Positions 2,884 through 63,830 of a DNA stretch of 64,000 nt are shown here, piece by piece. Under the pieces are notes generated by a model. It worked only from the letters and a program-made list of their open reading frames with translations. It was not told where the DNA came from and searched no databases. Origin of the DNA: a virus; IMG/VR virus record IMGVR_UViG_3300032240_001667, positions 15,104-79,103 of that record; one strand, written 5' to 3'. Numbering within the stretch: the first letter of the stretch is position 1; every line of letters begins with the position of its first letter. The translations under genes and the position numbers were made by a program.

Positions 2884-4800
2884 ATGGCAGTTAGACAACA
2901 ACAACGTAGAGGTACCGCAGCACAGTGGACCTCAGCAAATCCAATTCTTTCAGCAGCAGAAATCGGTGTTGAAATTGATACAAGTAAATTTAAGATTGGT
3001 GATGGAACTAATCGTTGGGCAGATCTAACTTATTTTACAACAGATGCTGCAACAGCAGTTACTGCAGAAGTTCAAACCGCAATTAATAATTTAATTGGTG
3101 GTGCACCAGGAATTCTAGATACCCTTAAAGAATTAGCAGACTCAATTGGAAATGATGGAAACTTTGTTGGCACCATCACATCCGATCTTGCTGCAAAAGC
3201 ACCATTAGCAAGCCCAACCTTTACAGGAACTGTATCTGGCGTAACAAAATCAATGGTTGGTCTTGGAAATGTAGATAATACCTCAGACGCTAACAAGCCA
3301 GTGTCAACAGCAACTCAAACTGCCCTTGACCTTAAGGCCAACACAGCAGATATTACAGAACTTTCACAAGATGCTGTTAACTCAGCACTTACTGCGGGAT
3401 CAGGTATTACAAAGACCTATAATGATTCAGCAAATACAATTACAGTTGCAGTAGACTCAACAATTGCAACAAAGACATATGCAGATGGTAAAGCATCTGA
3501 CGCACAGACTGCAGCAGCAGCAGATGCAACCACTAAGGCTAATAATGCTAAATCAGGTGCAGAAACTACAGCAGCAACTGCTCTTGCTTCACATGAAGCA
3601 GATACAACAAATATTCATGGTATTGCAGATACTTCTGCTCTTGCAACAAAAACATATGCTGATAATGCAGCATCTAATGCAGTTTCAGGTCTTTTAAATA
3701 ATGCACCCGCAGCATTTGATACTCTAAAGGAAATAGCAGATGCTTTAACTGCAGACGAATCAGCAGCAGCAACACTTGCTACTTTGGTAGGAACTAAAGC
3801 CCCTATTGCTTCCCCAACATTTACTGGTACAGTTTCAGGTATTACAAAGTCAATGGTGGGATTAGGAAATGTTGATAACACAACAGATACAGCAAAACCT
3901 GTTTCAACTGCACAACAAACAGCATTAGACCTTAAGGCTAATATTGCAAGTCCTACTTTTACAGGAACAGTTTCAGGAATTAGCAAATCTATGGTTGGAC
4001 TTGGTTCTGTAGATAATACTTCAGATGTTAATAAACCTGTTTCAACTGCGACACAGACTGCTTTAGATCTTGAAGTTACAAACCGTAATTCAGCAATAAC
4101 TTCAGCAATTAATACAGAGGTTACAAACCGTAACTCTGCTATTGCGACAGCAAAATCTCAGGCAATTTCAACTTCTGAGGGGTATACAGATACAGCAATT
4201 GCTAATCTTGTAAATTCTGCACCTTCTACACTAGATACACTTAAAGAACTTGCTGATGCATTAACCGCAGACGAAAGTACTGCAACAACTCTTGCAACAA
4301 CTGTTGGAACCAAGGCTCCTTCTGCTAATCCAACATTTACTGGAACAGTAGTATTACCTTCAACAACATCAATTGGAAATGTTTCGGCAACTGAAATTGG
4401 GTATGTTGATGGTGTAACTTCATCAATTCAGACACAGTTAGATTCTAAGGCTCCAACCGCTTCCCCAACATTTACAGGAACGGTATCTGGAATAACTAAG
4501 TCTATGGTTGGATTAACAAACGTAGATAACACTTCCGATGCTAACAAGCCAGTATCATCAGCAACGCAAACAGCATTAGATGCTAAACTATCTACTTCAG
4601 TTGCAACATCAACTTATGAAACAATTTCAAATGTTTCATTAAAAGCACCACTATTATCACCAACATTTACTGGTACACCATTAGCACCAACTGCATCATC
4701 TACAACTAATAACACTCAAATTGCTACAACAGCATTTGTAAAGTCTCAAATTACAAATATTTCAGACTTTAACTTAGTACTTGATGGTGGTGGAGTATAA
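2884..4800 (+). CDS. Tail fibre with Mtd_N (major tropism determinant N-terminal)-type domain
   Basis: QQRRGTAAQWTSANPILSAAEIGVEIDTSKFKIGDG N-terminus; several KAPLASPTFTGTVSGITKSMVGLGNVDNTSDANKPVST repeats. Confidence 0.8.
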   Translation: MAVRQQQRRGTAAQWTSANPILSAAEIGVEIDTSKFKIGDGTNRWADLTYFTTDAATAVTAEVQTAINNLIGGAPGILDTLKELADSIGNDGNFVGTITSDLAAKAPLASPTFTGTVSGVTKSMVGLGNVDNTSDANKPVSTATQTALDLKANTADITELSQDAVNSALTAGSGITKTYNDSANTITVAVDSTIATKTYADGKASDAQTAAAADATTKANNAKSGAETTAATALASHEADTTNIHGIADTSALATKTYADNAASNAVSGLLNNAPAAFDTLKEIADALTADESAAATLATLVGTKAPIASPTFTGTVSGITKSMVGLGNVDNTTDTAKPVSTAQQTALDLKANIASPTFTGTVSGISKSMVGLGSVDNTSDVNKPVSTATQTALDLEVTNRNSAITSAINTEVTNRNSAIATAKSQAISTSEGYTDTAIANLVNSAPSTLDTLKELADALTADESTATTLATTVGTKAPSANPTFTGTVVLPSTTSIGNVSATEIGYVDGVTSSIQTQLDSKAPTASPTFTGTVSGITKSMVGLTNVDNTSDANKPVSSATQTALDAKLSTSVATSTYETISNVSLKAPLLSPTFTGTPLAPTASSTTNNTQIATTAFVKSQITNISDFNLVLDGGGV

Positions 4801-4862: not shown

Positions 4863-6623
4863 ATGACAACAAGAATGCAACAACGTAGAGGAACTTCTAC
4901 ACAATGGACAGCAACAGATCCAATCCTTGCTGCTGGTGAAATTGGATTCGAATTAGACTCTGGTCAGTTTAAAATGGGCGATGGCGTAAATCATTGGTCA
5001 GATTTAGCATACTTTAAAGATATAAGTGATTTGGGTGCAAACTTAGATTCTTATCTATTAACAACAACTAGAGGTGCAGCAAATGGTGTTGCCTCACTTG
5101 ACGCAAGTGGTCAAGTTCCAATGTCTCAACTTACAAACTTAACCGCTGGTGCACCAGCAGCACTAGATACATTAAACGAACTTGCTGCTGCACTTGATAA
5201 TGATGCAAGTTTTTCTACTAAGGTGCTTGCATCTTTAGCAACAAAGGCTGCATCTACTGCACTTGTTTCACATGTAAACACAACAACTTCAGTTCATGGA
5301 ATTGCAGATACTGCAGAACTAGCAACAAAAACTTATGCTTCTAGTGTTGCAACAAATGCTCAAACTGCTGCAATTTCAAATGCTGCAACTGATGCAACTA
5401 ACAAAGTTTCTAATCACAACTCAACAACAACTTCGGTTCATGGTATTTCAGATACATCTGTATTAGAAACAGTAACTGGATCACAAGCAAAAGCAAACTC
5501 TGCATCTGCTACAGCAGTAAGTAATCACAATTCCGCAACAACCAGTGTACATGGCATTGCTGACACATCAGCACTTGCTACAAAAACCTATGCTGATTCA
5601 GCAGCAACAACTGCTGCAGCAGGAGTAACAAAATCATCTCTTGGTCTTGAAAACGTAACAAATACATCAGATGCCAATAAACCTGTATCAACAGCACAAC
5701 AAACTGCTTTAGATCTAAAGGCCAATTTGGCTTCTCCTACCTTTACTGGTACCGTTGGTGGTATTACAAAGGCCATGGTTGGTCTTGGTAACGTAGATAA
5801 CACTGCAGATACAGCAAAGCCAGTATCTACTGCACAGCAGACAGCACTTGATCTTAAAGAAACAGTAGTAAATGTTGCTCTTAAGGCACCACTTGCTTCA
5901 CCAGCACTTACTGGTGTACCAACTGCTCCAACAGCAGCAGCAGCAACTAACACAACACAAATTGCAACTACTGCTTTTGTTAGAGGAGAAGTAACTGCTC
6001 TTGTAAATGGAGCAACTGCTGCACTAGATACTTTGGGAGAATTAGCAGCAGCACTTACTGCTGACGAAGCAACCGCAGCAACACTTGCTACTTTGGTAGG
6101 AACAAAAGCACCACTTGCTTCACCAACATTTACAGGAACAGTAACAATTCCTGCAGGTGCAAGCATATCAGGTTTTGCTCCACTTGCTTCACCAACATTT
6201 ACAGGTACAAATACTGTAGCAGCACTTACAGTATCTGGTTCTGGATTAATAACAGCATCTTCTGCTGGTATAGCATTTACAGACGGTACACAAACAAAGG
6301 AAGGCGTAGTCTCACGAACACCAATTGTTCAAAAAACAGCATCTTATACACTTTCAGCACTTACAGAAAGAGACTCTCTTATTGAAGTAGCCTCTGCATC
6401 TGCAGTAACAATAACAGTACCAACAAATGCCACAGTAGCATATCCAGTAGGAACATCTATTGACATTCTTCAAACTGGTGCTGGACAAATTACTGTAGCA
6501 GGTGCTGGTGGAGTTACCGTTAACGCAACACCAGGATTAAAGTTAAGAACACAGTGGTCTGGAGCAACACTCTTTAAGAGAGCAACAGATACTTGGGTTC
6601 TTTATGGCGATCTTTCAGCATAA
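4863..6623 (+). CDS. Second Mtd_N-type tail fibre with C-terminal adaptor-like beta domain
   Basis: QQRRGTSTQWTATDPILAAGEIGFELDSGQFKMGDG; TTSVHGIADT repeats; C-terminal YPVGTSIDILQTGAGQIT...WVLYGDL domain. Confidence 0.8.
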   Translation: MTTRMQQRRGTSTQWTATDPILAAGEIGFELDSGQFKMGDGVNHWSDLAYFKDISDLGANLDSYLLTTTRGAANGVASLDASGQVPMSQLTNLTAGAPAALDTLNELAAALDNDASFSTKVLASLATKAASTALVSHVNTTTSVHGIADTAELATKTYASSVATNAQTAAISNAATDATNKVSNHNSTTTSVHGISDTSVLETVTGSQAKANSASATAVSNHNSATTSVHGIADTSALATKTYADSAATTAAAGVTKSSLGLENVTNTSDANKPVSTAQQTALDLKANLASPTFTGTVGGITKAMVGLGNVDNTADTAKPVSTAQQTALDLKETVVNVALKAPLASPALTGVPTAPTAAAATNTTQIATTAFVRGEVTALVNGATAALDTLGELAAALTADEATAATLATLVGTKAPLASPTFTGTVTIPAGASISGFAPLASPTFTGTNTVAALTVSGSGLITASSAGIAFTDGTQTKEGVVSRTPIVQKTASYTLSALTERDSLIEVASASAVTITVPTNATVAYPVGTSIDILQTGAGQITVAGAGGVTVNATPGLKLRTQWSGATLFKRATDTWVLYGDLSA

Positions 6624-6653: not shown

Positions 6654-8195
6654 ATGGCAGTAAATAAGAAAATGGGTGGTCACGCACAAGGTGCTAATGA
6701 CTCACTAATGCCTTTTGCACCAACAATCGGAACAGCCACAAACGTAGGTTCTGGAAGAAATTATAATGATGGTCGAGCAGACATAACATTTACTGCTGCA
6801 GGTCCTTATGCAGCAACATCTTATACTGTAACTTCTTCTCCTGGTGGCTATACCGCTACAGGTGCCTCTTCTCCTTTAACAGTAACAGGTCTTCAGTCTG
6901 GCACTGCTTATACATTTACTGTAACTGCTACAAATTCATATGGAACTTCTGTTGCATCATCAGCATCTAATTCAATTACTGCAACAACTTTGCCACAAGC
7001 ACCAACAATGGTTTCTGCAACAAACCAAGGTTCTAGTCGTCCATATAACCAGGGACAGGTTGCAATTGCTTTTTCTGCAAATGCTACTGGAGGTTCAGCA
7101 CTTGATTCATATGCGGTAAATGCTTTTGATACAAATGGAAATTATTTAGCACAAGTAACAGGTTCAAGTTCTCCTTTAACCTTTACAACACTTTCATCTG
7201 GAGGAGTTTATAAATTTGCTGCTTATTCTCATAACGCAAATGGTTATTCTGCAGCAAGTGCTTTTTCTGGAAATGTAACTGTTACTACTGTTCCAGCGAC
7301 ACCATCAGCACCATCAGCATCATCTCCTTCAGCAGGAACTGATACGGTTTCATGGTCTGCACCAGCAAATGGAGGATCTGCTATTACATCTTATTACTTA
7401 TACGATAATGGTGCAGCAGTTGGAAACGTTGGAAATGTTACATCTTACAATATTGGAGAAACACAAGGTTCAAATCACTATTTCCAAGTTGCAGCAATTA
7501 ATGCAAATGGACAAAGTGGAACATCTGCTGCTAGTGGAACTGTAACTACAACATTTTCATTTGCACCTTTTGGAGCATTTGGTGCTTTTAATTTCTTTGG
7601 AGCATTTGGTGCTTTTGGTGCTTTTGGTGCTTTTGGTGCTTTTGGTGCGTATAACTTTGCTGTTTATGGACAACCAGGATTTAAATTTTCTTCTTCAATT
7701 AACGTAAACACAGAAATTATAATGTATTCAGTAGCAGGACAACCAGAATCAGTAAAGCCTGCTGGTCAACTTCAGGTTGGAGATAAATTGCTTGCATTGG
7801 ATCTTGGTCCAAAACCAACTAATGGTGACTGGAGATCTTGGCAATTACCTACAGGAACAGATATTTCAAATGCTAATTTAGTTGAAACAGAAATTGTTGA
7901 CATTCAAATTGTTCCAGAAAATAAATTTATTTATATTGATGGAGATTTGTTCTCAGAAACTCACTGGATTTTAACTAAAAAAGATGGTCTGGTTAAATTT
8001 ATTAAATCAACAGATATAGATACAACATATCAAAGATATTCTTATAATAATAATGAATTTGTTGACATTATTTTAGTTGAATCATTAGACTTAGTAATGG
8101 ATAAAGTTTCTATTAACTGCGAACCTTATGATAACTTCTTTACTAGACAAATGCTTGTAAAAGATTTCTATGATAACAAACATCCATTAGTTTAA
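6654..8195 (+). CDS. FN3-repeat adhesin/fibre tip with (FGA)n repeat and C-terminal Hint (intein/hedgehog-like) domain
   Basis: Three FN3-like units (GLQSGTAYTFTVTATNSYGTS; VSWSAPANGGSAITSY). Hint-like blocks: SINVNTEI, KPAGQLQVGDKLL, FSETHWIL, SINCEPYDNFFTRQMLVKD. Confidence 0.75.
   Translation: MAVNKKMGGHAQGANDSLMPFAPTIGTATNVGSGRNYNDGRADITFTAAGPYAATSYTVTSSPGGYTATGASSPLTVTGLQSGTAYTFTVTATNSYGTSVASSASNSITATTLPQAPTMVSATNQGSSRPYNQGQVAIAFSANATGGSALDSYAVNAFDTNGNYLAQVTGSSSPLTFTTLSSGGVYKFAAYSHNANGYSAASAFSGNVTVTTVPATPSAPSASSPSAGTDTVSWSAPANGGSAITSYYLYDNGAAVGNVGNVTSYNIGETQGSNHYFQVAAINANGQSGTSAASGTVTTTFSFAPFGAFGAFNFFGAFGAFGAFGAFGAFGAYNFAVYGQPGFKFSSSINVNTEIIMYSVAGQPESVKPAGQLQVGDKLLALDLGPKPTNGDWRSWQLPTGTDISNANLVETEIVDIQIVPENKFIYIDGDLFSETHWILTKKDGLVKFIKSTDIDTTYQRYSYNNNEFVDIILVESLDLVMDKVSINCEPYDNFFTRQMLVKDFYDNKHPLV
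7569..7649 (+). repeat. In-frame 9-bp tandem repeat TTTGGWGCW encoding eight FGA units
   Basis: TTTGGTGCT almost five times perfectly at 7605-7648; eight FGA triplets in total, interrupted once by FNF. Confidence 0.95.
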
Positions 8196-8232: not shown

Positions 8233-8979
8233 ATGAAAAAAAACAAACCTTCAAAGGTAACTTTTATAAACACGCTTCCAAAAATGAAAAATATTTTTCC
8301 TCAACCCGAACCATCTTTTAAAAATATTCCAAATTGGTATAAAAAATTAGAAAGTTTTTATGAAGGAGATCCAACTCCAGAAAATGGAAATCAAAAGTTA
8401 ACTGCAAAAAGGTGTGTTGCGTTTTTAGATATTTTATCTAGTGGTTATATATTAAAATGCCCGTTTGATATTTATATTGATACCACTGAAGGAAAACAAA
8501 TATTTGATATTCCAGCAGCATTAAAACCTTTAACAGATATTGGAAGTAAACAATTTATTGGAAGTCATGATATAAAACAAGTTCAAGGGTACCCTTTTGA
8601 TACAAATCAATATATAGAGTATTTATTTAGAATAAACATGGTATGGGTAGTAAAAACAGAACCAGGATATAGCACCCTTTATTTACCACTTCAACACCAT
8701 GAGATATCTCCTTTGTTTCCAATATCAGCAGTAATTGATTCAGATGAGTATCCATCAAATGGTTTATTATCATTTTTAGTTAAAAAAGATTTTAAAGGTT
8801 TTATTGCAAAAGGAACTCCATTAGTTCAAGTAATTCCTTTTAAAAGACAAGATTTTATTTCAGAGCATCTTGAAACACAAGAAGAGGTTGATAAGTTAAA
8901 TTATATAGGTGCAAAGATTAGAACTGTTTTTAATTCAGGTTATAAAAAATTATTATGGCATAAAAAGTCTTATAGATAA
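8233..8979 (+). CDS. Conserved phage protein, DUF6065/dUTPase-like beta fold (function unknown)
   Basis: IPNWYK...TAKRCVAFLD..SGYI...WVVKTEPGYS...VIDSD...KGTPLVQVIPFKR; paralog of 63093-63830. Family name is from recollection. Confidence 0.55.
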   Translation: MKKNKPSKVTFINTLPKMKNIFPQPEPSFKNIPNWYKKLESFYEGDPTPENGNQKLTAKRCVAFLDILSSGYILKCPFDIYIDTTEGKQIFDIPAALKPLTDIGSKQFIGSHDIKQVQGYPFDTNQYIEYLFRINMVWVVKTEPGYSTLYLPLQHHEISPLFPISAVIDSDEYPSNGLLSFLVKKDFKGFIAKGTPLVQVIPFKRQDFISEHLETQEEVDKLNYIGAKIRTVFNSGYKKLLWHKKSYR

Positions 8980-9079: not shown

Positions 9080-11110
9080 ATGTCAGATTTTTTTAGTTTT
9101 AAACTTCCAGAAGATTTTGTAGAAAATTACAAAAACAAAGAAAATCCATTTGGTTTTAAAGATGCAGCAGAAAACTCACTTGGAGAAATTACTTTTATTC
9201 GCACCTATTCTCGTGTAAAGGAAGATGGAACTAAAGAGCGTTGGCATGAAGTTTGTCGTCGTGTAATTGAGGGTATGTATTCAGTTCAGAAGAATCATGC
9301 TAAAGAAAATCGTTTGCCATGGAATGATTACAAGGCTCAAAAATCAGCACAAGAAGCATTTCAAAGAATGTTTGAACTTAAGTGGACTCCGCCAGGAAGA
9401 GGTATGTGGACATTTGGAACTCCAATGACCATGGAAAAAAGAAATTCTGCAGCACTTCAAAATTGTGCCATGGTTTCTACCAAAGATCTTGACAAAAATG
9501 ATCCAGGAGCATTATTTGCTTGGGTTATGGATGCTCTTATGCTTGGCATTGGTGTTGGTTTTGATACAGTAGGACAGGAAAAGAATTTCTTAATCTATAC
9601 TCCCACAGAACCAGCAGCGATCTTTGATATTCCAGACACTCGTGAAGGTTGGGTAGAATCAGTTCGTATTTTGTTAAACTCTTATCTTCGTCAAAATCAA
9701 TCAATTCAAAAGTTTAACTATGACCTTATCCGTCCTCTAGGAGCACCAATTAAAGGCTTTGGAGGGGTCGCCAGCGGTCCAGCACCACTCATGCAACTCC
9801 ATGCACAGATCGAGAAAGTAATTGGCGGTAGAGCGGGAGAGACCCTAGATAGTCGTGCCATTACAGATATTATTAATCTTATTGGTACCTGTGTGGTATC
9901 AGGAAATGTTCGTCGTTCTGCAACACTTGCTTTGGGTGCAGCAGGAGATGAAGATTTTATTAATCTTAAAAATGCTGAAGTATTCCCAGATCGTAACTCA
10001 TTTGATCCAGAAAACCCAGGATGGGCTTGGATGTCAAATAACTCAATTTCTGCAACAGTTGGAATGGACTATGAAAAGTACACCGATCTAATTGTTAATA
10101 ACGGAGAGCCAGGATTTATTTGGCTTGATGTTGCTCGTAACCATGGTCGTTTAGCAGATCCTGCAGATGGAAAAGACTACCGTGTTATGGGCTTCAATCC
10201 TTGTGCGGAGCAGCCATTGGAGTCGTATGAACTTTGTACTCTTGTAGAAGTTCACTTAAATCGACATGAATCCAAGGAGGACTTCCTCAAGACATTGAAG
10301 TTTGCTTATCTTTATGGCAAGACTGTCACATTGCTTCCAACACATTGGCAGCAAACAAACGGTATTATGCAAAGAAATCGTAGAATTGGTACATCTCTTA
10401 CAGGTATTGCATCATTTGCAGATCAAAAAGGTCTTCCAGCAGTCCGTGAGTGGATGGATGAAGGCTATCAAACAATTCGTAAATACGATCACTCTTATTC
10501 TGAATGGCTATGTGTTCGTGAATCAATTCGAGTAACAACGGTTAAGCCATCGGGATCTGTTTCAATTCTTTCTGGTGCAACACCTGGAGTTCACTGGGGA
10601 CCTGGAGGAGAATTCTTCCTACGTGCTGTAAGATTTGGTGATACAGATCCAATGCTACATTTGTTTAGAGCAGCCAACTATAATGTTGAAAAAGATGTTG
10701 TTTCAGCAAATACATCTGTTGTTTATTTTCCAATTAAGTCTGGACAAAAGCGTTCTGAAAAAGATGTAACATTATTTGAAAAAATTGCTCTTGCAGCAAC
10801 TGCTCAAAAATACTGGTCAGATAATGGTGTTTCTGTAACACTTTCATTTGACAAGGAAACAGAGTCTAAGCATGTTGCTCCAGCACTTCACATGTATGAA
10901 GGGCAACTAAAGGCTGTTTCATTCTTACCAATGGGAAATACTGTTTATCCGCAGCAACCATATACTCAAATTACTGAAGATCAATATACAAGTTATATTG
11001 GTAAACTTAAGCACATTGACTTTAGTGCAATTTACGATGGTGTAGATAATTTGGAAGGATCTGGTGAAGCCTATTGCACTACAGATTATTGCGAAATTAA
11101 AATTGGCTAG
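9080..11110 (+). CDS. nrdJ: Class II (adenosylcobalamin-dependent, monomeric RTPR-type) ribonucleotide reductase
   Basis: RTYSR, PPGRG, LQNC, GNVRRSA, NPCAEQ catalytic loop, TTVKPSG, C-terminal CTTDYC redox pair. Confidence 0.93.
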   Translation: MSDFFSFKLPEDFVENYKNKENPFGFKDAAENSLGEITFIRTYSRVKEDGTKERWHEVCRRVIEGMYSVQKNHAKENRLPWNDYKAQKSAQEAFQRMFELKWTPPGRGMWTFGTPMTMEKRNSAALQNCAMVSTKDLDKNDPGALFAWVMDALMLGIGVGFDTVGQEKNFLIYTPTEPAAIFDIPDTREGWVESVRILLNSYLRQNQSIQKFNYDLIRPLGAPIKGFGGVASGPAPLMQLHAQIEKVIGGRAGETLDSRAITDIINLIGTCVVSGNVRRSATLALGAAGDEDFINLKNAEVFPDRNSFDPENPGWAWMSNNSISATVGMDYEKYTDLIVNNGEPGFIWLDVARNHGRLADPADGKDYRVMGFNPCAEQPLESYELCTLVEVHLNRHESKEDFLKTLKFAYLYGKTVTLLPTHWQQTNGIMQRNRRIGTSLTGIASFADQKGLPAVREWMDEGYQTIRKYDHSYSEWLCVRESIRVTTVKPSGSVSILSGATPGVHWGPGGEFFLRAVRFGDTDPMLHLFRAANYNVEKDVVSANTSVVYFPIKSGQKRSEKDVTLFEKIALAATAQKYWSDNGVSVTLSFDKETESKHVAPALHMYEGQLKAVSFLPMGNTVYPQQPYTQITEDQYTSYIGKLKHIDFSAIYDGVDNLEGSGEAYCTTDYCEIKIG

Positions 11111-24523: not shown

Positions 24524-27500
24524 GTGTCAGATGTAAATGCTAATATTGGTATACATTTTGATACTGCCAACGCCCTTGCACAATTAAGACAGTTACAGGC
24601 TGGTCTTAGTAAGTTTAATCAATCCCTTACAGAGGGAAACATTGCTGCTGCAAATGCACAAAAAGGAATAAATGCACAACTAGTTCAGTCTATAAATTCT
24701 ACTGGACAGTTTGTAGCATCACAAAAATCAATTGCATCAAGTACTGCCTCTTTTACTGATGCACTTGAAAAAAATAAACTTAGCATGGGGCAATACTTTA
24801 GGTATACCTCTGCAGCAGCAACACTTAATAGCAATTCTCTTCAAGGCTTTTTTACAAAAGAAAAAGAAATTTTAACTCGTGCAAGTAAAGATAGAGTTAA
24901 AGCATTACAAAGTCAATACATTCAATTAAATAATGCAAATGGTGAATTTGTAAAAGTATTACAAGTTATGCCAAAACATCTTGCAACCGTAAATGGTCAA
25001 TATGCAGACTATGCAACAAGAGTTCAGATGGCTGCACAACGCCAACAAATGCTTAATCAATTAATTCAACAAGGATCAACACAACTTCTTAATTTTGGTA
25101 AAAATACACAATGGGCTGGAAGACAGTTGATGGTTGGTTTGACTGTTCCACTTACAATCCTTGGCTCTACTGCAGCAAAAACATTTAGGGACATGGAACA
25201 GGCAACTGTAGATTTCCAAAGAGTTTACGGAGATATGTTTACCAGCAATGGTGCAACAGATAAAGCAGTTGCAGACATTAGAGCACTAGGAAAAGAATTT
25301 ACAAAATTTGGTGTCGCAGCAACAGATACAATGAAGTTAGCAGCACAAGTTGCTGCAATGGGATTAACTGGTAGTGCATTAAATGCACAAGTTACAGCAG
25401 CAACAAAACTTTCTGTTCTTGGCCAAGTGTCACAACAAGATGCTCTTAACACAACTATTTCTTTGCAAAATGCATTCGGTATATCATCTGACGAACTTGC
25501 TAAAAAAATTGATTATCTAAATGCTGTAGAAAACCAAACAATTTTATCTATTCAAGATATGACTACTGCAATTCCAAAAGCAGCACCAGTTGTAAAACAA
25601 CTTGGTGGAAATGTTGAAGATTTGGCATTCTTCCTTACCGCAATGCGTGAAGGTGGAATTAATGCATCTGAAGGTGCTAACGCCTTAAAGTCATCTCTTG
25701 CATCTATAATTAATCCAAGCAAAAAAGCAACAGAGTTATTGTCGTCATTTGGAATTAGCATAAAGGGAATTGTTGATGCTAATGCTGGAAATCTCAAGGG
25801 AACTGTAATTGGACTTGCAAAAGCCTTAGATACACTAGCACCACTTGATAGAGCAAGAGCAATTGAAACAATGTTTGGTAAATTCCAGTTTGCTCGTATT
25901 TCTACATTACTTCAAAATATTACTAAATCTGGATCACAAGCAGCAACAGCATTAAGTCTTGCAGGTGCTTCAACTGCGGAACTTGCAATTTTATCTCAAA
26001 GAGAAATGAGCAAAGTAGAAAATGCAGTAGGAGTAAAATTTCAAAAGTCAATTGAAAATATTAAAATTCAATTAATGCCAATTGGAAAAGCATTTTTACA
26101 AGCAGTTACACCAGTTGTACAATTTGTTGGAAAAATATTGGAAAAGTTTAATAACCTTAGTGACGGTACTAAAAAGTTTGTTATTGGAACCATTGCAGTT
26201 CTTGGTGGAATAGCACCAGTTGTTTTGATGACAGTTGGTTTGATTGCAAACGGTGCAGCAAACCTTATGAAATTTTTTGGAATGCTTCGTGGAAGCATGG
26301 CAAAGTTAAATGGTCAAAATTCTGTATTGGGTGGCGGTTTTGATTATTTAACACAAGCAGAAATTGAAAACCTTGCACAATCACAAGCATTACATACATC
26401 ACATAAAGAATTAATATCAACATTTAATGTTGAAGCAGAATCTTTAAACCTTTTAGCAACAGCGTATGCAAATGCTGCATCTCAGGCAAGATCTCTTGCA
26501 TCTGGATCACCAGGATTATTTAATGCAAAGCCTGGTGCAGCGGGTGCAGTTTCAAACTTGCCAAGAACTAAATTTGCAAATGGAGGCGTTGTTCCTGGTA
26601 GTGGAAACGAAGATACTGTTCCTGCAATGCTTACACCTGGAGAAGTTGTCCTTACAAAAGATACAGTTAATAATAACTCAGAACTTGTTTCAGCATTAAT
26701 AAATGGAAAAATTAAAAAATATAGTCAGGGTCCAGGGAAAAAAACAATTGATGGAAGGCAGTCTCTTGCAGTAAGAGCGGCAACCATTCAAAGTAGCCTA
26801 CAAATTCCTGGTGCAGAGGGATGGAATGGAAGAATTGAATCACTTGTTGCAGGAGTTCTTGCCGATGGAGAAAAGGCAACACAAAGAATTGTTCAATTTG
26901 CAAAAGACTCTGGTAGAGATATTTCAGCAAGCCAACTAACTGCTTTAGAAGAAGAGCGTCATAAAATGCTTGATGCATTAGAGTCAGGTGCATCAGAAAT
27001 TCTTAATGATAAAGGCACTGAAAAAGTTAAAAAGGCTAGTGCTAGTGTTGCTAAAAATTGGCTTAAACAAAAGGCTATTGCAGAAGGTGTTCCAGTTGAA
27101 GGAAATACAAATTTATTTAATGCTTTACTTCCACAGGGTAGGCAATCAGAAAATCCACAAGAAGGTCATCAAACATTAGCAAAAATTGTTCCATTAGATC
27201 AGGTTGCTAAAGATATAAACATAGTTAAAGATGCTGCAGTAAAAGATTTAAATACAACTGTCGATGCACTTAAGGAGGCTGGTTATGGAAAACCAGGTGG
27301 ACCTGCAATGCCGTCCACAAGAGTAGTTAGCCTTACAACCGCAGCAGAAACGGGTTCTGTAAATAGGCAACTTGCTGAAACCACACCAGAAGGACAGCAA
27401 GCATATTTAGCAGATTACTCATTAAAGACAGGGAAACAAACATCATCTATGGCAGTGCCATATTTAGAAGATGTTAAAACCCTCGGTCCAGAAAGATGGA

Positions 27501-30500
27501 AAAATGTAACAAAGGCTATGGGTATTAAATTTGATACTGTAGCACAAGATTTTAAAAAGTTTGATGATGACTATGTTAGAAATGTTGAAGATTGGATTTC
27601 TAAAAATCCTGGTGGATTTTTTAATGATTCTGTTAAAGAAGAAATTTTGTCTGCAACTCGTGCCAATGCTCCAAAATCTGTTCAAACAATATTAAATGCC
27701 TCAGATCAAATTTTTGTTGCAATAAGAACATCCCTTGATGAAGTTACAAGAAAAATTATTACCGATTTTGCTAATAAAAATGGTTTAGATGTTCCCTCTA
27801 TTGCAAGAGAAGGAGATAACAATCATGCTCGTTTAGGAAAAATTGAAGCAAGAACAGTTGGTTCTGCAGTAGGAAGCGTTGCTGGTACAACTCCATCTGA
27901 AATTAAAAAGAATACAAAGGCTGAAGTAGAAGCAATTATTTCAGCAAAGAAAGCAGGAGCAGAATTAGGATCGGCAGCAACAGATGGAATAAGAGGTCCA
28001 TCAGGAACCGATGCAAAATCACCATCTAAAAAGGGCATCAATGCAGGTAAGGAAGTTGGCGATGGCCTTATTGTTGGAATGCAAGAAAAAGAACTTGAAG
28101 TTGCATCTCAAGCAGGCAAACTTGGAAAATCTGCAATACCCACAATGCAAGGCGATAAGGTAGATGTTGGTAATAAAGCATTCTATGATGAAATGAATAA
28201 TCCAGCAGATCGTGAAGAAAGGCAAGTCTTTAAATCAGAAGATAGACAGAGAAGAAAACTTGCAACTATAAGCAGTTCAAAACTATCAAAAATAGTTGAA
28301 CAACATACAAAAGATCTTGCAAACTCTACAGAGTCTTCTGTTTTGACTCAACAAGAAATTAATAAGAATCTTAAAGAAAGTGCAATCGCTACAGCAAAAG
28401 CAAAAATAGCAGATCAAAAACTTGCATTGCAAAAAGAAGAGGCTGCATTAATTCCAAATGGATCACAGACTGGAAACATACCATCTACCTATGTAAGTAA
28501 TTCTGAAGCACAAGATATTGCAGCAGATATTGCAAGAGACAAAAATGGTCAAATTATTATGGATCCTCAAACCAATTCTCCATATACTAAAAAACAACTT
28601 AATGAAATTAAGCGGGGAATGCGTAGAGAAAGGGTTGGACAATTTTCTGGTAAAGCAGCAGGAGCATTAGGTGTTGCTACTATGGTATCTGGTGCAATGG
28701 GAGCACCAGGACAAGTTACTGCTGGACTTGGAATTGCATCCACAGTAGCCTCATTAGCCCCAGCACTTGCAGGTATGGGACCTGTAGGAATAGCAGTAAC
28801 ATCAATAGCAGCAGCAGGTGCAGCAGCATTATATCTTAAAAATAAATTTGATGAAATGGTATCTGCACAAGTAAAATATGTTGAGTCTGTTTCTGCAACA
28901 ACAGAAAAAATGAAAAAAATTGGCGAAATAACTGGAAAGGTTGGAGCATCTGAACTTTATACAAAGTTAAGAGCAGAAGGGTCTTCAAACGCCTACACAT
29001 CTTCTTTTGAAAGAGGAAAGCAGCAATTTGGAACAGACTTTTTATCATCAGATGTAGGAAAAGCAATAAATAAAGGTTTTGTTTCAGATCTTGCAGTATC
29101 TGGTTCAAAAAAAGCAGCAGAAACTTTAGCATTACAACTTTCAACATATATTTCTGACGGAGTTCTTAGTGCTGAACAAGCATATAGTGTTGCTAGACAA
29201 ATCGGATTAAATCTTGGAAACATGACACTTGGAACACAAATTCAAGGAAAAATTACAGAACTTGTTGGTCCAGATGGAAAAGATATTTTAAATAATCCAT
29301 TAGATGTTAGAGTAAGAATAATTCAAGAAAAACAACAAAATAATGCTGTTACAGAACAATCTGCATTAAAGAGTAAAAATACAAGAACTTGGTGGCAGTA
29401 CATACTTGGTCTATCAAATCAAGAGCAAGCACAACAGTTTGCAGCATTAAATGCATCTCAATCACAAACACTAGTTACAATTCAGGCACAAAGAGATGCA
29501 CAAAATAAAATGTATGATGATCAAGTCAGAGCACTTGAAGCACAAAAGGCTGCAACAACAGATAAAGCAAAACAACTTGAAATAGATAATAAAATTAAAA
29601 CTGCAAGAAAACAACAAGCAGATGATGATGCTGTTTTTGCAAAAAAATCTGCAGAGCAAAGAAAGAAAATTTTAAAAGATTATAATTTAGCATTAAAAGA
29701 AGATAATAAAGGTCGTGAATGGGCAGAAATTACAGTAAATGCAAATGCAGTATTGCAAGCATCTGCTGCTTCTGTAAAGGCAAAATTTACTGGAGATTCT
29801 GCCCCTATTGCAAATGCTCTTTTAGCAAAAACAAAAGACTTAAAATCACAAGCAATTGAGTTGCAAATAAATACTATGGTTGCTGGAGGAGATTTAGATC
29901 CAACATCAGCAATTGCAATTTTGGATATGTTTGGTAAAGATGAAAAGGGTATGATGAAAACCCTTACAACTGCATTAGAATTACATGACCCAGGTAAAGT
30001 ACAAGAATTAATTACATTAACACAGTCACTTGGTGGAAAACTTGGATTAAAAATATTAGTAGATCTTGGTGCAGAAAAAGATCCTGTAAAATTTGCAAAT
30101 GAAATGAATACTTTGCAACTACTTTCTCAATTAGATAGCAAAGAAATTAATATAAAAGTATTTTTACAAAAATCAGGAAACCTAGAAAGCCTTAGTTCAT
30201 TATTAGATAAAATTGATCAAAAAGTTGGAAAAAATGGAATTACCCTCAAAGTTCTTCAAGATGTTCAAAAGGTTGATCCAAATATGCCTGACCTTAGTGG
30301 GCTTATTGCTGATTGGCAAAAGTATAAAGACCAACCAGCATCTATTCAAAAATCTGTTTTATTAACTTATACCTCTATTTATAAAACAATTGGCACAGAT
30401 GAAATTGCTAAATATAGAGCAGCACATCCAGAAATGGGTGATGCGAGTGATGCTGAAATACAAGGTAAAATTGCTGCTGATCTTGTTCCAAATAAAATAA

Positions 30501-33136
30501 CTGCACCAGTTATTTCAAAAGATCAAAAGAATCCACCACAAGACTCTGGAACTAAAAAAGTAGATCAAGCATTAATTGACATAAATAAAAGATTAAGAGA
30601 TGTTCGTAACTCATCTATCCTTGCAACAGAAAGTATGGCAGAATTATCTGCAGCCCTTGCAAAAACTGGAAGCAAAGCAGTGCTTGATCGTTTTGATGGA
30701 TTGTCACAAAGACTACTTAAATTAGGAAAAACACAACAGTTTACAGATTTCCTTACAGGTTTGGACGAAACTGAATTAGCAAAATATGGAAAGCGTGTAG
30801 TTAAAAAGGGTGTAAATCCTCTTAATGATACAAAAGATAAAACTCTTGATGTTGGTGCTTTTGTATTAAATGATAGAGGTAAAAAGTTTGAGGCTGGAAT
30901 TAATCAATCAATTTCTGGAGACTATAACAAAATACAACTTCAATCTTCTATTTCTCAACAACAAGAATTAGTTGCAAGAAAAAAACTTGTTGCACTTGGA
31001 TTCAATCAAAAAGATATTCAAACAATGCTTGCAGATGAAAACTATAGAACTCTTATTGCAACTGGCAAAGTTACCAATGAACAAATTAGACAAAATGCTG
31101 TTTTAACACAACAAAATAGAATAGTTGCATCAATAAACTCTCTTTATCAAAGTCAAGTAGATGCACAAAAAGTTTCGGATAACCAACAAAGAATTCCAGA
31201 AGTTGTTAAAATGTTACAGCAGGCTGGAGTTAATGCAGAAAGTATTAAAGCAGCACTTTCAGATCCACAAATGCTTCAAACTTTAATTGACGGAATGGAT
31301 AATTTTGCTACAGCCTCTGCAGAAGTTAGAGATAACTTTAATAAAACATTAGGATATATTGATCAAATTCCAGATAGAAAACTTGTTGAAATTGTTTATA
31401 CACAATCAGATGCAGAAAAAACCATTAATGGTGCAAATGCTGCTATGCAATTATTTGATGCATATAAAAAAATTGATGAAAACTCATTAAAAAATGCACA
31501 AGGAAATACTTATGCTGGCTTGCAAACTCAAATGGAAAATCTAAATAATCAAGCCAAAATTGCACAAGATGCAATAAATATGACTCAATCAAAAATTGAT
31601 ACAATGCAACAAGAGGTCGATAAGGCTCAGAGAGATATAGAAACTAATTTTACTAGACCAATTGAAGCAAGACAAAGATCAATAGATTTACTAAATCGTC
31701 AAGTTGAAATAAATTATACAAGACCAATTCAGGCTATACAAGATAGATCAACAATTCTTTCTCATGACCTAGAGGTAATGAATCATGCTGCAGATGCAAT
31801 TAATAAAAAATATGACGATCAACAAACAGCCCTTACAAAAATTGCAGAGATTAATAATCAAATTATTCAACAACAGCAACAACAACTTGGTCTTGCCGAT
31901 GCCTTAACAAAGGGAGATATTTCTGCTGCTGCAAAGGCTGCCCAAGACATGAGGGCAACAGGTGCAGCAAATTATGCTCAAAACGCACAAGATGCACTTC
32001 AAAAAGCAAGACAGAATGAAATTGATGCACTACGTGGTGGGATAAGTGGAAAATCAGCAAAAGATATTCAAGAAGAACAATATCAAAATGGATTAAAAAC
32101 CTACGATCTAGAACAACAAAAGGCTGTTGTTGATAAACAAATTCTTGGACTTCAAGATGAAATTTATCAGTTAGAACAGTCTAGACTTGCAGCCCAAGAT
32201 GCTATTCAAATTAAAACAGATGCAATTGCTAAAATTCAATACGGACTCCTTTTAGATCAACAAAATGCATTAAAGGCAATAAATGATTCTATATTGCCAT
32301 TACAACAACAGAGCGATATATTGTTTAATCAAATTTCTATAAATGATCAAAATAGACAAATATCTGGAAAAACAAGAAAAGAATGGGATGATTTATTGGT
32401 TGCAGCAACTGCAACAAAACTACTTGCAGAAGGAGATCTTGCTAGAGCATTAGGTGCAGCAGACTCTGTATCTGGAAGTATAAAGTCAAGTTGGGATAGC
32501 ATATTAGATAGTTATAATAAAATTAAAAGCAAATCAATTGAAATAAAGCAAACAATTATAACTGACTATATAACTGGAACGAAAAAATCTTCTTCTGGAT
32601 CTACCGCTCCAACAGGCAAAGCAAATGAACCCGATGCTGCTGGTTTAACATATGACCCTAACGGAGAAAAAGGTAAAACTGCTGAAGAGTTAAAGAAATT
32701 TGATGATGCTGCAATAGCAAAATATGCAACAGGTGCAGAAGCGGCTGCAGCAGCAGCAAGATTAGCAGAAAAAGCACGACTCGATGCAATCGCAGCCGAT
32801 GCAGCAATGTTCCCTGGAGGAAGAAGAGCAGGATATTCAATGGGCGGACTTGTACCTGCTTATTTTGCAACAGGTGGATACGCAATAGGAACTGATACCG
32901 TTCCAGCAATGCTAACTCCTGGGGAATTTGTAATGAGCAAATATGCTGTAAACCAACATGGTGTTAATACATTAAGAGCAATGAACAACGGCTCTGCATC
33001 AATAGGAGATTCAGTGTATAATTATAACCTTAACATAAATGTTAGGTCTGATTCAAGTCCAGATGAAATTGCACAAACAGTTATGGCACAAATAAAGCAA
33101 GTAGACTCACAAAGACTTAGGGGAAATAGATTATAA
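24524..33136 (+). CDS. Tape measure protein (2870 aa)
   Basis: TP901-type core (LAFFLTAMREGGINASEGANALKS), long helical and coiled-coil regions, hydrophobic segments, GG..DTVPAMLTPGE motifs. Confidence 0.93.
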   Translation: MSDVNANIGIHFDTANALAQLRQLQAGLSKFNQSLTEGNIAAANAQKGINAQLVQSINSTGQFVASQKSIASSTASFTDALEKNKLSMGQYFRYTSAAATLNSNSLQGFFTKEKEILTRASKDRVKALQSQYIQLNNANGEFVKVLQVMPKHLATVNGQYADYATRVQMAAQRQQMLNQLIQQGSTQLLNFGKNTQWAGRQLMVGLTVPLTILGSTAAKTFRDMEQATVDFQRVYGDMFTSNGATDKAVADIRALGKEFTKFGVAATDTMKLAAQVAAMGLTGSALNAQVTAATKLSVLGQVSQQDALNTTISLQNAFGISSDELAKKIDYLNAVENQTILSIQDMTTAIPKAAPVVKQLGGNVEDLAFFLTAMREGGINASEGANALKSSLASIINPSKKATELLSSFGISIKGIVDANAGNLKGTVIGLAKALDTLAPLDRARAIETMFGKFQFARISTLLQNITKSGSQAATALSLAGASTAELAILSQREMSKVENAVGVKFQKSIENIKIQLMPIGKAFLQAVTPVVQFVGKILEKFNNLSDGTKKFVIGTIAVLGGIAPVVLMTVGLIANGAANLMKFFGMLRGSMAKLNGQNSVLGGGFDYLTQAEIENLAQSQALHTSHKELISTFNVEAESLNLLATAYANAASQARSLASGSPGLFNAKPGAAGAVSNLPRTKFANGGVVPGSGNEDTVPAMLTPGEVVLTKDTVNNNSELVSALINGKIKKYSQGPGKKTIDGRQSLAVRAATIQSSLQIPGAEGWNGRIESLVAGVLADGEKATQRIVQFAKDSGRDISASQLTALEEERHKMLDALESGASEILNDKGTEKVKKASASVAKNWLKQKAIAEGVPVEGNTNLFNALLPQGRQSENPQEGHQTLAKIVPLDQVAKDINIVKDAAVKDLNTTVDALKEAGYGKPGGPAMPSTRVVSLTTAAETGSVNRQLAETTPEGQQAYLADYSLKTGKQTSSMAVPYLEDVKTLGPERWKNVTKAMGIKFDTVAQDFKKFDDDYVRNVEDWISKNPGGFFNDSVKEEILSATRANAPKSVQTILNASDQIFVAIRTSLDEVTRKIITDFANKNGLDVPSIAREGDNNHARLGKIEARTVGSAVGSVAGTTPSEIKKNTKAEVEAIISAKKAGAELGSAATDGIRGPSGTDAKSPSKKGINAGKEVGDGLIVGMQEKELEVASQAGKLGKSAIPTMQGDKVDVGNKAFYDEMNNPADREERQVFKSEDRQRRKLATISSSKLSKIVEQHTKDLANSTESSVLTQQEINKNLKESAIATAKAKIADQKLALQKEEAALIPNGSQTGNIPSTYVSNSEAQDIAADIARDKNGQIIMDPQTNSPYTKKQLNEIKRGMRRERVGQFSGKAAGALGVATMVSGAMGAPGQVTAGLGIASTVASLAPALAGMGPVGIAVTSIAAAGAAALYLKNKFDEMVSAQVKYVESVSATTEKMKKIGEITGKVGASELYTKLRAEGSSNAYTSSFERGKQQFGTDFLSSDVGKAINKGFVSDLAVSGSKKAAETLALQLSTYISDGVLSAEQAYSVARQIGLNLGNMTLGTQIQGKITELVGPDGKDILNNPLDVRVRIIQEKQQNNAVTEQSALKSKNTRTWWQYILGLSNQEQAQQFAALNASQSQTLVTIQAQRDAQNKMYDDQVRALEAQKAATTDKAKQLEIDNKIKTARKQQADDDAVFAKKSAEQRKKILKDYNLALKEDNKGREWAEITVNANAVLQASAASVKAKFTGDSAPIANALLAKTKDLKSQAIELQINTMVAGGDLDPTSAIAILDMFGKDEKGMMKTLTTALELHDPGKVQELITLTQSLGGKLGLKILVDLGAEKDPVKFANEMNTLQLLSQLDSKEINIKVFLQKSGNLESLSSLLDKIDQKVGKNGITLKVLQDVQKVDPNMPDLSGLIADWQKYKDQPASIQKSVLLTYTSIYKTIGTDEIAKYRAAHPEMGDASDAEIQGKIAADLVPNKITAPVISKDQKNPPQDSGTKKVDQALIDINKRLRDVRNSSILATESMAELSAALAKTGSKAVLDRFDGLSQRLLKLGKTQQFTDFLTGLDETELAKYGKRVVKKGVNPLNDTKDKTLDVGAFVLNDRGKKFEAGINQSISGDYNKIQLQSSISQQQELVARKKLVALGFNQKDIQTMLADENYRTLIATGKVTNEQIRQNAVLTQQNRIVASINSLYQSQVDAQKVSDNQQRIPEVVKMLQQAGVNAESIKAALSDPQMLQTLIDGMDNFATASAEVRDNFNKTLGYIDQIPDRKLVEIVYTQSDAEKTINGANAAMQLFDAYKKIDENSLKNAQGNTYAGLQTQMENLNNQAKIAQDAINMTQSKIDTMQQEVDKAQRDIETNFTRPIEARQRSIDLLNRQVEINYTRPIQAIQDRSTILSHDLEVMNHAADAINKKYDDQQTALTKIAEINNQIIQQQQQQLGLADALTKGDISAAAKAAQDMRATGAANYAQNAQDALQKARQNEIDALRGGISGKSAKDIQEEQYQNGLKTYDLEQQKAVVDKQILGLQDEIYQLEQSRLAAQDAIQIKTDAIAKIQYGLLLDQQNALKAINDSILPLQQQSDILFNQISINDQNRQISGKTRKEWDDLLVAATATKLLAEGDLARALGAADSVSGSIKSSWDSILDSYNKIKSKSIEIKQTIITDYITGTKKSSSGSTAPTGKANEPDAAGLTYDPNGEKGKTAEELKKFDDAAIAKYATGAEAAAAAARLAEKARLDAIAADAAMFPGGRRAGYSMGGLVPAYFATGGYAIGTDTVPAMLTPGEFVMSKYAVNQHGVNTLRAMNNGSASIGDSVYNYNLNINVRSDSSPDEIAQTVMAQIKQVDSQRLRGNRL

Positions 33137-62440: not shown

Positions 62441-63109
62441 ATGAATAGAGATGATTTTTTAAACAAAAATATTCTCGGATCTGAATATTGGGTTAATTCA
62501 GAAAATAAATCTTTTATTGAATTATGTGAAGGCAACATGCTTATGTATAATGATTGGAAGTTTCCAACACATATACAAGAAACTGAGTATAAAGATAAAG
62601 TAATTAAACCAATAAACAAATATGCTTTATATTTTTATCCAAAACCAGAATTAATTAAAAAAAATAATTGCATAGTTTTAAGACAAAAAACACATGCAGA
62701 AATATGGGTAGAACCTAAAAAAAATGGAATATATATATTAGATAGACCATGGCAAAGACAGTTTTATCCATCAAAAAATATTTATAATTTTGAAGAAGAT
62801 TGTTTTGATATGGTTTTAAGATTTTATATGCCATGGTTAATCGATGTAGATCAAAACTTTAAGATTAATTCTGTACAAGGTTCACCATTTAAAATATTGA
62901 ATGAATCCGTTTCTTTTTTTAAATTTAATTATAAAGAAAATAAAGTGGATACTCAATGGATTGATTTTTTTGTAAAAAAGAATTCAGACTACATAGATAA
63001 ATATTCTAATAAAATTTATGGCATTATACAATTAAATACCCCAATGTATGATATAATTATAGAAGATTCAAAAACAATAGAACGGATACTACTTGAGTAC
63101 AACCAATAA
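62441..63109 (+). CDS. Hypothetical protein, distant relative of the 8233/63093 family
   Basis: RFYMPWLID...SPFKI...WIDFFVKK...GIIQLNTPMYDI mirrors the C-terminal half of those proteins. Confidence 0.45.
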   Translation: MNRDDFLNKNILGSEYWVNSENKSFIELCEGNMLMYNDWKFPTHIQETEYKDKVIKPINKYALYFYPKPELIKKNNCIVLRQKTHAEIWVEPKKNGIYILDRPWQRQFYPSKNIYNFEEDCFDMVLRFYMPWLIDVDQNFKINSVQGSPFKILNESVSFFKFNYKENKVDTQWIDFFVKKNSDYIDKYSNKIYGIIQLNTPMYDIIIEDSKTIERILLEYNQ

Positions 63110-63830
63110 GATAACCTTTACTATAGGAAATCTTGATAGTTATTTTGTTGAAAACACTTTGCCACCAATTGAAGCATATAAAAAAATTCCAGATTGGTAT
63201 AAAGACCTTGCTTCATATAGAAGTGGTTCTAGTAACAACATTAAATATTTGTGTCCAGTAAATGATAGAGGACAAGATGGTTCGGATGTGTCAACAAAAC
63301 TTTGTACACCCTTTATTGACGCAATGGTTTCTGGATATATTCAACCACTATCAGAAGATGTAAATGTTAGAGTAGATGAAAATGAAAAACCATCTTTAGA
63401 ATGGAGCAGTACTCTTCAAATTATTGATGTAAGACCAAGCGTAGATTTAGCAATACCACAAGACTGTTATCCAATTCATTTTGGTTGGAAAATGGCTTGG
63501 CACTATGAAACACCTCCTGGATATTCTGTTTTAATTACGCATCCATTTAATAGGTTTGATTTGCCATTTTATGTTCCTTCTGGAATTGTTGATAGTGATA
63601 TTTGGGGCTTGCCAGTATTTTTACCATTTTTTTTAAAAAGAGGTTTTGAAGGAATAATTGAAAAAGGAACACCACAATTTCAAATGATACCAATAAAAAG
63701 AGATAAGTGGGAGTTAGAAATAGATAATTCAAAAGAAACTTTTTTAAAGCATAAAATATTAGAAGAAACTCGCCGTGCAAGTATGACAGGTCATTACAAA
63801 AAAACGGCATGGCAAAAAAAGAATTATTAG
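63093..63830 (+). CDS. DUF6065/dUTPase-like fold protein, paralog of 8233-8979
   Basis: IPDWYK, STKLCTPFIDAMVSGYI, WHYETPPGYSVL.THP.NR, GIVDSD, GIIEKGTPQFQMIPIKR. Confidence 0.6.
   Translation: MSTTNKITFTIGNLDSYFVENTLPPIEAYKKIPDWYKDLASYRSGSSNNIKYLCPVNDRGQDGSDVSTKLCTPFIDAMVSGYIQPLSEDVNVRVDENEKPSLEWSSTLQIIDVRPSVDLAIPQDCYPIHFGWKMAWHYETPPGYSVLITHPFNRFDLPFYVPSGIVDSDIWGLPVFLPFFLKRGFEGIIEKGTPQFQMIPIKRDKWELEIDNSKETFLKHKILEETRRASMTGHYKKTAWQKKNY

Follow-up and report, generated by a model that had tools for sequence, protein, structure and literature searches.

Self-removing C-terminal domains are known from the maturation of phage fibres, and autoprocessing is known from Hint domains; a link between the two was not found in the searchable literature. 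In Peptidase_S74 chaperones (endosialidase, T5 pb1), a C-terminal domain of the phage fibre aids maturation and then undergoes autoproteolysis at a serine. Hedgehog joins an N-terminal functional part to a non-splicing C-terminal Hint, Hog (1at0), which acts at its own N-terminal junction. B-type BIL (BIL-B) domains keep the N-terminal and block-B motifs, have lost the C-terminal motif and belong to variable proteins (Amitai 2003; Dassa 2004; PMC7765530), and the BIL2 domain of BUBL1 (6tmm/6y75), placed between ubiquitin-like domains, forms an isopeptide bond (PMC8616854). Here we describe a gene of an uncultured freshwater phage, contained in a window of 64,000 nucleotides (bases 15104-79103 of the IMG/VR record IMGVR_UViG_3300032240_001667), whose 513-residue product consists of three FN3 domains, a phenylalanine-rich (FGA)n repeat and a C-terminal Hint domain that probably acts as a self-removing pro-domain (Table 1).

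The four systems resemble this protein in different respects. Peptidase_S74 chaperones are closest in function, a likeness that lies in the proposed function only, as fold and chemistry are unrelated; no Pfam or PHROG match to Peptidase_S74 was obtained in the 513-residue protein, and its end domain models as a Hint instead. Hedgehog is closest in architecture (VIA-align root mean square deviation (rmsd) 1.9 over 131 residues), although Hog carries a sterol or adduct-recognition region where only nine residues follow Asp504 here, and its nucleophile is Cys rather than Ser. BIL-B domains, likened by motif definition only, come closest in logic, sharing the Hint fold, the loss of His-Asn, variable surface or secreted host proteins and an expected N-terminal cleavage without ligation. 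They differ in that the phage domains form a separate viral sequence family with a Ser nucleophile, a terminal Asp and an extreme C-terminal position. BIL2 is the best structural match and likewise uses a Hint otherwise than for self-excision; it is set apart by Cys1, a terminal Asn, its place between ubiquitin-like domains and a sequence identity of 14%. The original prediction, made from the DNA letters, supposed that the architecture had not been described as a phage system, and the literature agrees so far as it could be searched: no paper on Hint domains ending phage fibre proteins was found, with subscription journals poorly covered, so that one may have been missed.

The C-terminal Hint-bearing domain comprises 166 residues (348-513). 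Sequence evidence alone for a Hint in this protein is weak: a Pfam scan gave no Hint match at E<=1, Pfam and PHROG together yielded FN3 only, a profile search of PDB sequences was marginal and confined to block A (E ~0.01; Clostridium thermocellum BIL domain, E 0.009), and Atlas scores of 0.81-0.84 serve as leads only. An AlphaFold2 model of residues 333-513, built from an alignment of 98 relatives (model residue 16 is Ser348 and 172 is Asp504), reached a predicted local distance difference test score (pLDDT) of 90.1 and a predicted template modelling score (pTM) of 0.85, the pLDDT climbing from 45 to 82 along the junction residues 333-347. All 33 Foldseek hits in the PDB at E<=0.001 are inteins, BIL domains or Hedgehog. 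VIA-align, an independent comparison against representatives, placed Tetrahymena BIL2 (6tmm) first (Z 18.5, rmsd 1.8, 141 residues aligned), while the Npu DnaB intein and Hedgehog 1at0 both scored Z 16.8 and the C. thermocellum BIL domain 16.4. Some 25 other Hint structures exceeded Z 11, unrelated structures all stayed at Z 2.5 or below, and the alignments with about 25 inteins, BIL domains and Hedgehog (Z 14-18.5) span model residues 13-175. Solved structures numbered from residue 1 start to align at Ser348, which pairs with Hedgehog Cys258, and their last residue pairs with Asp504. The original prediction had read a Hint into this domain and staked that reading on its modelling as one, which it does, with the top hits of both structure searches all in the Hint superfamily; structural alignment and family conservation likewise bear out Ser348 as the position-1 nucleophile, S-x-x-H as block B, and Lys-Asp in place of His-Asn. 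As modelled, the end domain is a genuine Hint superfamily fold with a nucleophile at position 1 and a block B (S434-E-T-H437), and the resemblance is far beyond chance.

The strongest indirect evidence for the role of the Hint comes from orthologs without one. Residues 1-300 match several clusters of proteins of 304-385 residues that have the leader, the FN3 domains and an aromatic repeat and then stop, a few residues past the repeat, with ends such as GRGARIY, PRFIV, GGFTAAF and RSIRAY. The IMG/VR locus L088 contains a fibre gene ending in domain X (the last domain of the fibre encoded directly 5' of the Hint gene), a Hint-less protein and a homolog of the 248-residue protein encoded next in the window; L087 is arranged identically but with a Cys1/His-Asn Hint attached. 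These two proteins are 81% identical over residues 1-346, and that of L088 stops seven residues after the repeat. P0001 and the Hint-less L088 protein are 59% identical over residues 3-346, exactly the predicted N-terminal fragment. Because such orthologs exist, the protein probably works as an FN3-repeat fragment with a free C-terminus and can do without the Hint. The original prediction had offered several roles for the domain (a cleavable folding chaperone, covalent coupling of a lipid or small molecule, cyclisation, or covalent attachment to the host surface), and of these the plainest, a removable cap, is the one favoured by Hint-less orthologs that end after the repeat.

We hypothesize, with a probability of roughly 60%, that the Hint is the pro-domain of an accessory fibre-tip protein and removes itself by hydrolysis. 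After folding, Ser348 would attack the carbonyl of Ser347 in an N-to-O acyl shift assisted by His437, and water, speculatively activated by the terminal carboxylate, would hydrolyse the resulting ester. The products would be a 34.5-kDa FN3-FGA fragment with a free carboxyl at Ser347 and a discarded Hint of 19.0 kDa. Until assembly the Hint would keep the very hydrophobic tail soluble, or in register, while the leader would anchor the protein on domain X and leave the aromatic tail at the distal end. The Hint diverges faster than its neighbours, which fits a disposable domain, and since only 3-10 residues follow it in the family, there is no room for an adduct-recognition region.

The domain does not have the setting of an intein. 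Lys503-Asp504 is followed by Phe505, the domain is terminal, Hint-less orthologs end after the repeat, and no homing endonuclease is present. A degenerate selfish intein was ruled out, since the domain is terminal, has conserved its catalytic residues and contains no endonuclease. With Phe at +1 and Asp in place of the terminal Asn, canonical splicing is excluded here; the chemistry compatible with the conserved residues is an N-to-O acyl shift at Ser348 and a subsequent resolution of the ester. The original statement that the domain cannot splice holds for this protein with its +1 Phe and Lys-Asp end and should not be extended to all relatives, 58 of 157 of which have Ser or Thr at +1, some members of the family combining Cys1 with His-Asn.

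To describe the family, relatives were gathered by a word-indexed search (31), by running phmmer exhaustively over 1.84 billion representatives (91 clusters at 50% identity) and by a scan of IMG/VR (282 contigs), and in almost all of them the Hint domain is the protein end. Conservation was counted in 157 non-identical, near-complete domains of 37-87% identity, with position 1 aligned in 147. Ser occupies position 1 in 144 domains and Cys in 2, the first position of block B is Ser or Thr in 148, and the block-B His is present in 153. The block-F Asp position is Asn in 111 domains and Asp in 21. At the C-terminal end the last residue is Asp (130), Asn (12) or Glu (11), and the commonest penultimate residues are Phe (67), His (37) and Tyr (32). 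The +1 residue is most often Ser (44), Arg (39), Gly (24) or Thr (14), a non-nucleophile (Arg, Gly or another) standing there in 99 of the 157, and the tails of 3-10 residues that follow the Hint are unconserved. The Cys1 members P0112 and P0136 have Gln instead of the block-B His and end in His-Asn, so at least two active-site configurations occur on one kind of protein. In P0136, P0112 and L087:1178-2710, one Lys or a short tail comes after the His-Asn, and the protein is of the FN3-(FGFTP)n type. Few family members resemble described Hint profiles: 9 of 99 relatives reached Pfam Intein_splicing (E<=0.01), and a few reached Hom_end_hint, PT-HINT or Hint_2. PASTA (peptidoglycan-binding) domains form the N-terminal part in 21 of the 99.

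Several points weigh against hydrolytic self-removal. First, cleavage is a prediction based on the fold and on residue conservation. Second, the nucleophile is Ser, which is weaker than Cys, and Asn usually takes the place of the block-F Asp, so that the rate could be low or dependent on a trigger. Third, a near-invariant terminal Asp, Asn or Glu is unexplained by simple N-terminal cleavage and could serve C-terminal cleavage or the activation of another nucleophile. Finally, the tails of Hint-less proteins are short and basic (GRGARIY, RSIRAY, PRFIV) and so are not exact copies of a cleaved product.

The first two of these points would also suit a Hint fold that is not processed at all and forms a structural distal knob, for receptor binding or spacing, on a virion protein present in its 53-kDa full-length form. 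The loss of the His-Asn pair agrees with such a knob, Hint-like folds can be catalytically silent, and cleavage in the family members is a prediction only. We nevertheless regard it as quite unlikely: the near-invariance of Ser1 and the block-B His across 37-87% identity and the interchange of Ser and Cys at position 1 are both difficult to account for unless the domain is catalytic, some orthologs have lost it entirely, and the Hint evolves faster than its neighbours.

The last residue, which is acidic or Asn in 153 of 157 domains, invites the suggestion of a reaction at the C-terminal end, in which Asp504 would cyclise and free the nine-residue tail, or relatives with Ser or Thr at +1 would splice their short tail onto the N-terminal part. 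Inteins with a terminal Asp have been reported to cleave or to splice. The 58 relatives with Ser or Thr at +1 and the members with Cys1 and His-Asn would be candidates, as would a cultured Erwinia phage relative in which His-Asn is followed by Thr (see below). In the protein studied here, with Phe at +1 and a penultimate Lys, and with family tails that are short and unconserved, this is very improbable, and freeing a nine-residue peptide alone has no evident purpose.

The sequence before the Hint is conserved in character more than in letters. Aromatic residues make up at least 20% of the 40 positions preceding position 1 in 120 of 145 relatives and less than 15% in 20, mostly those with Pro-rich or (PT)n linkers, and the repeat units vary from (FGA)n through (FGFTP)n and (FFPP)n to Gly/His/aromatic sequence. 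The suggestion that a low-complexity aromatic repeat always precedes the Hint is thus right for most of the family and too strict for the rest, which have Pro-rich or PT linkers. What seems to be conserved is a low-complexity, mostly aromatic or Pro-rich stalk of no particular sequence. A collagen-like triple helix was considered for (FGA)n, which has Gly at every third residue, and rejected given relatives with a period of five (FGFTP) or four (FFPP).

Relatives of the Hint domain also occur in cultured phages. Compared by tblastn with 50,697 phage records, the domain had a single weak match (E 3e-3), a protein of the Erwinia jumbo phage pEa_SNUABM_5 annotated as 'putative tail fiber protein', whereas the whole protein matched the same cultured phages through FN3 only. 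This protein, gp108 (477 residues; MW366843.1 69539-70972; L084:2966-4396), consists of collagen Gly-X-Y repeats and a C-terminal Hint that is canonical, with Cys1, THEH, EPYD, His-Asn then Thr, and a ten-residue tail; its matches to Pfam Hint_2 and PT-HINT are sub-threshold. In an hhalign comparison the family profile and the Erwinia Hint align with a probability of 96.5% (E 9.5e-10, 135 columns), block B pairing with block B (S434-E-T-H437 with THEH) and Asp504 with the terminal Asn. The two types thus share a homologous domain that terminates a fibre-type protein and follows a repetitive stalk, as well as an EPYD block-F motif, and differ in that the Erwinia type has the full canonical Cys1, THEH and His-Asn plus Thr on a collagen Gly-X-Y stalk. 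Among cultured phages, 54 records contain the collagen-Hint domain, from phages of Erwinia, Dickeya, Yersinia, Salmonella and Alcaligenes, and their annotation is that of a tail protein or a structural protein of the virion. Phages with a Hint-ended fibre-type protein include pEa_SNUABM_5, Y3, Yoloswag and AD1, and some papers naming these Erwinia and Dickeya phages do not mention a Hint domain. Y3 and AD1 are 'hairy' myoviruses, and the proteins of their hairs are reported as unidentified (PMC6143709). A scan of 185,579 prokaryote genomes gave one match, on a 10-kb contig in a Lake Mendota metagenome-assembled genome that is apparently a misbinned phage, and this match yielded no prophage or host assignment.

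The genome under study contains a second Hint cassette 13 kb upstream (L083:8617-10269), encoding a 550-residue protein with a PASTA domain, (PT)n linkers, Cys-rich modules and a Hint. Both paralogs carry the identical 14-residue junction YNFAVYGQPGFKFS, and junction plus Hint are 73% identical over 181 residues (BLASTP), while outside this region the two proteins have nothing alike. By sequence comparison, junction and Hint are a portable, fast-evolving module that is homogenised within one genome. Other phages of this lineage (L041, L043, L050 and L009) likewise have two Hint-capped genes, within ~7 kb of each other, and the possession of two cassettes is thus shared beyond this genome.

Each of the two Hint genes is preceded by a fibre gene that ends in domain X. 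The AlphaFold2 model of domain X has a pLDDT of 96.4 and in structure comes closest to the C-terminal domain of the Pa223 capsid spike (Z 14.5), with Z 8-10 to a KP1 baseplate protein and to the N-terminal assembly domains of CBA120 TSP4; Foldseek adds T4 gp9 and gp10. We take these structural relatives to be docking platforms in branched fibre complexes. Because the best match is a capsid spike, the 'fibres' might be head or neck appendages and not tail fibres. Pro39, Gly49, Thr71, Asn73, Ser85, Lys91 and the terminal Gly-Asp-Leu of the domain are invariant. For each of the 63 Hint genes whose upstream sequence is long enough to judge, the gene directly 5' ends in domain X (51 identified by hidden Markov model (HMM), 12 diverged copies by eye), and the domain was found nowhere else in the IMG/VR loci. 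This adjacency alone is weak evidence, because the loci belong to a single lineage with wider synteny in which the ribonucleotide reductase (RNR) gene is also conserved nearby. The paralogous duplication of the X and Hint gene pair is stronger evidence: the domain X copy of the second cassette (L083:8292-8606) is ~37-38% identical to the window copy (E 2e-17). Compared with other PASTA cassettes, the PASTA cassette of this genome is 56-71% identical in its X and only 50-53% identical in its Hint, which is 73% identical to the FN3 Hint of the same genome. X and Hint identities are 93% and 52% in L012, and 83% and 38% in L079. Judged from these identities, the subtype of X tracks the N-terminal domain type and the Hint does not. 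With X conserved, the Hint divergent and X subtypes following the N-terminal domains, a specific interface between X and Hint is unlikely. The leader is a better anchor candidate: its motif recurs in FN3-type members even where the Hints are only ~38% identical, and docking of the leader on domain X would leave the aromatic tail distal. The 513-residue protein thus probably sits on the gp10/XD-like domain X, most likely via its leader.

Domain X also bears on whether the Ser348 ester might be transferred rather than hydrolysed. In such a reaction, of the Hedgehog or BUBL/BIL2 type, a nucleophile would attack the ester and the FN3-FGA fragment would become covalently attached through its C-terminus to a virion-protein lysine, for instance in domain X, to an amine or hydroxyl of the host cell wall, or to a lipid. 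The best structural match, BIL2, makes an isopeptide bond to lysine (PMC8616854), domain X offers an invariant Lys and precedes the Hint gene at all 63 judged loci, the terminal carboxylate is conserved without an obvious role, peptidoglycan-binding PASTA domains form the N-terminal part of some relatives, and the two cassettes of this genome have only junction and Hint in common. We still consider transfer unlikely. Hint-less orthologs, 81% identical up to the repeat, manage without ester chemistry, no adduct-recognition region follows the Hint, and X and Hint do not co-vary, as the Hint diverges fast and X, being conserved, follows the N-terminal domains in subtype; moreover, a Z rank of 18.5 against 16-17 among Hint structures is not evidence of shared function. 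The particular version in which an activated ester at the distal end of the fibre would be resolved by a nucleophile of the host wall (for example, a peptidoglycan side-chain amine, in keeping with the sister proteins that bear PASTA domains) or of the virion to give a covalent bond is a little more doubtful again. If true, it would mean that Hedgehog/BUBL-type transfer chemistry is used in virus adsorption or assembly.

Genes for possible tailoring enzymes accompany some of these cassettes. In L083 (region to 12814), the PASTA-Hint gene is followed by a 265-residue gene without a Pfam match, a 2-oxoglutarate-Fe(II) (2OG-Fe(II)) oxygenase (PF13640, E 4.5e-17) and a PF11397 N-acetylglucosamine (GlcNAc) transferase (E 2e-50), a pairing that recalls hydroxyproline glycosylation, for which the (PT)n linkers would be candidate substrates. 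Oxygenase genes also lie 3' of PASTA-type Hint genes in L008, L010, L013, L020 and L021, and runs of two to three PF13640-type 2OG-Fe(II) oxygenase genes directly follow the fibre-tip gene both in L087:2719-4897, which has a Hint, and in L089:2183-4236, which has none. Because such runs follow genes with and without a Hint, tailoring of the Pro/Phe repeat, if any, would be independent of the Hint.

The layout of the Hint protein came out as first read. The open reading frame is uninterrupted on the + strand and encodes 513 residues; the three FN3 units are matched by Pfam fn3 in three stretches (E 4e-14) and by PDB titin FN3 arrays (E 2e-22); eight FGA triplets lie within residues 306-332; and the motifs stand exactly where they had been placed, with FSFAP at residue 301 (nt 7554), SINVNTEI at 348 (nt 7695), SETHW at 434, SINCEP at 486 and LVKD at 501-504, nine residues before the end. 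The repeat is also a tandem array at the DNA level, of 9-bp units (7567-7648, 9.1 copies, 78% matches).

Table 1. Features of the Hint gene and its neighbours (nucleotide positions in the window).
Feature	Position	Strand	Evidence or remark
Fibre-type gene	52-2346		Matches tail-fibre PHROGs
Fibre-type gene	2884-4800		Mtd_N and many fibre PHROGs
Fibre gene directly 5' of the Hint gene, 586 aa	4863-6623	+	N-terminal Mtd_N (Pfam E 2.9e-11), many tail-fibre PHROGs, C-terminal domain X
Domain X, last 105 aa of the upstream fibre	6306-6620	+	gp10/XD-like beta domain, ends GDLSA; probable docking platform
FN3-(FGA)n-Hint gene, 513 aa + stop	6654-8195	+	Open reading frame
N-terminal leader, ~22 aa (basic stretch, then xANDxLxP)	6654-6719	+	Candidate fibre anchor, conserved in FN3-type members
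Three FN3 domains, residues ~23-300	6720-7553	+	Pfam fn3, PDB titin arrays
Aromatic low-complexity repeat, residues 301-332	7554-7649	+	FSFAP, (FGA)2, FNF, (FGA)6
Junction, residues 333-347 (YNFAVYGQPGFKFSS)	7650-7694	+	Paralog BLASTP alignment begins exactly here
Hint-fold domain, residues 348-504	7695-8165	+	Structure model, conservation, profile alignment
Catalytic position Ser348	7695-7697		Position 1
Catalytic positions Ser434/His437	7962-7964 (His)		Block B
Catalytic position Asp504	8163-8165		Terminal residue
C-terminal tail FYDNKHPLV, nine residues, + stop	8166-8195	+	+1 residue is Phe
248-aa gene, function unassigned	8233-8979	+	phrog_7084, PHROG E 3e-39
Class II RNR gene	9080-11110		Portal and prohead protease genes next

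The Hint gene is the last of a fibre cluster, as originally described, with three fibre-type genes before it and the 248-residue and RNR genes after it. A phrog_7084-type gene is a frequent neighbour, lying within 150 nt 3' of the Hint gene in 45 of 79 loci; for the 248-residue product, Atlas clusters score 0.97-0.98, and DUF6065 is annotated on 20-23% of cluster members. Homologs of the window genes 62441-63109 and 63093-63830 sit ~1.4-2 kb 3' of the Hint gene in other loci. A very long reading frame of 2870 residues (24524-33136) lies amid tail genes and presumably encodes the tape-measure protein. The terms 'adhesin' and 'fibre tip' for the 513-residue protein are suggested by its domain types and by gene order.

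The IMG/VR record is linear, 79,103 bp long and ~73% complete by CheckV; the G+C content of the window is 27-42%, and the + strand carries nearly all genes. Its portal is 46% identical to portals of ~127-kb Streptomyces phages, with which an actinobacterial host would be compatible, although such a portal does not prove one. WhiB, sought as an actinobacterial marker, gave sub-threshold matches only.

For this large family, the relatives provide a natural active-site series, with Ser/His/Asp, with Cys/Gln/His-Asn and with no Hint, on similar aromatic or Pro-rich tails, which suits the questions of why a removable cap should be required on a sticky fibre end and of whether ligation through the ester occurs in any member. 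The canonical relative in cultured Erwinia and Dickeya jumbo phages is immediately testable, and a Hint that is compact, Ser-based and limited to cleavage could be of interest in protein engineering. The aromatic repeats, whether (FGA)n, (FGFTP)n, (FFPP)n or Gly/His/aromatic, represent an unexplored class of phage surface sequence, and the finding would be more interesting still if any member of the family used the ester for ligation.

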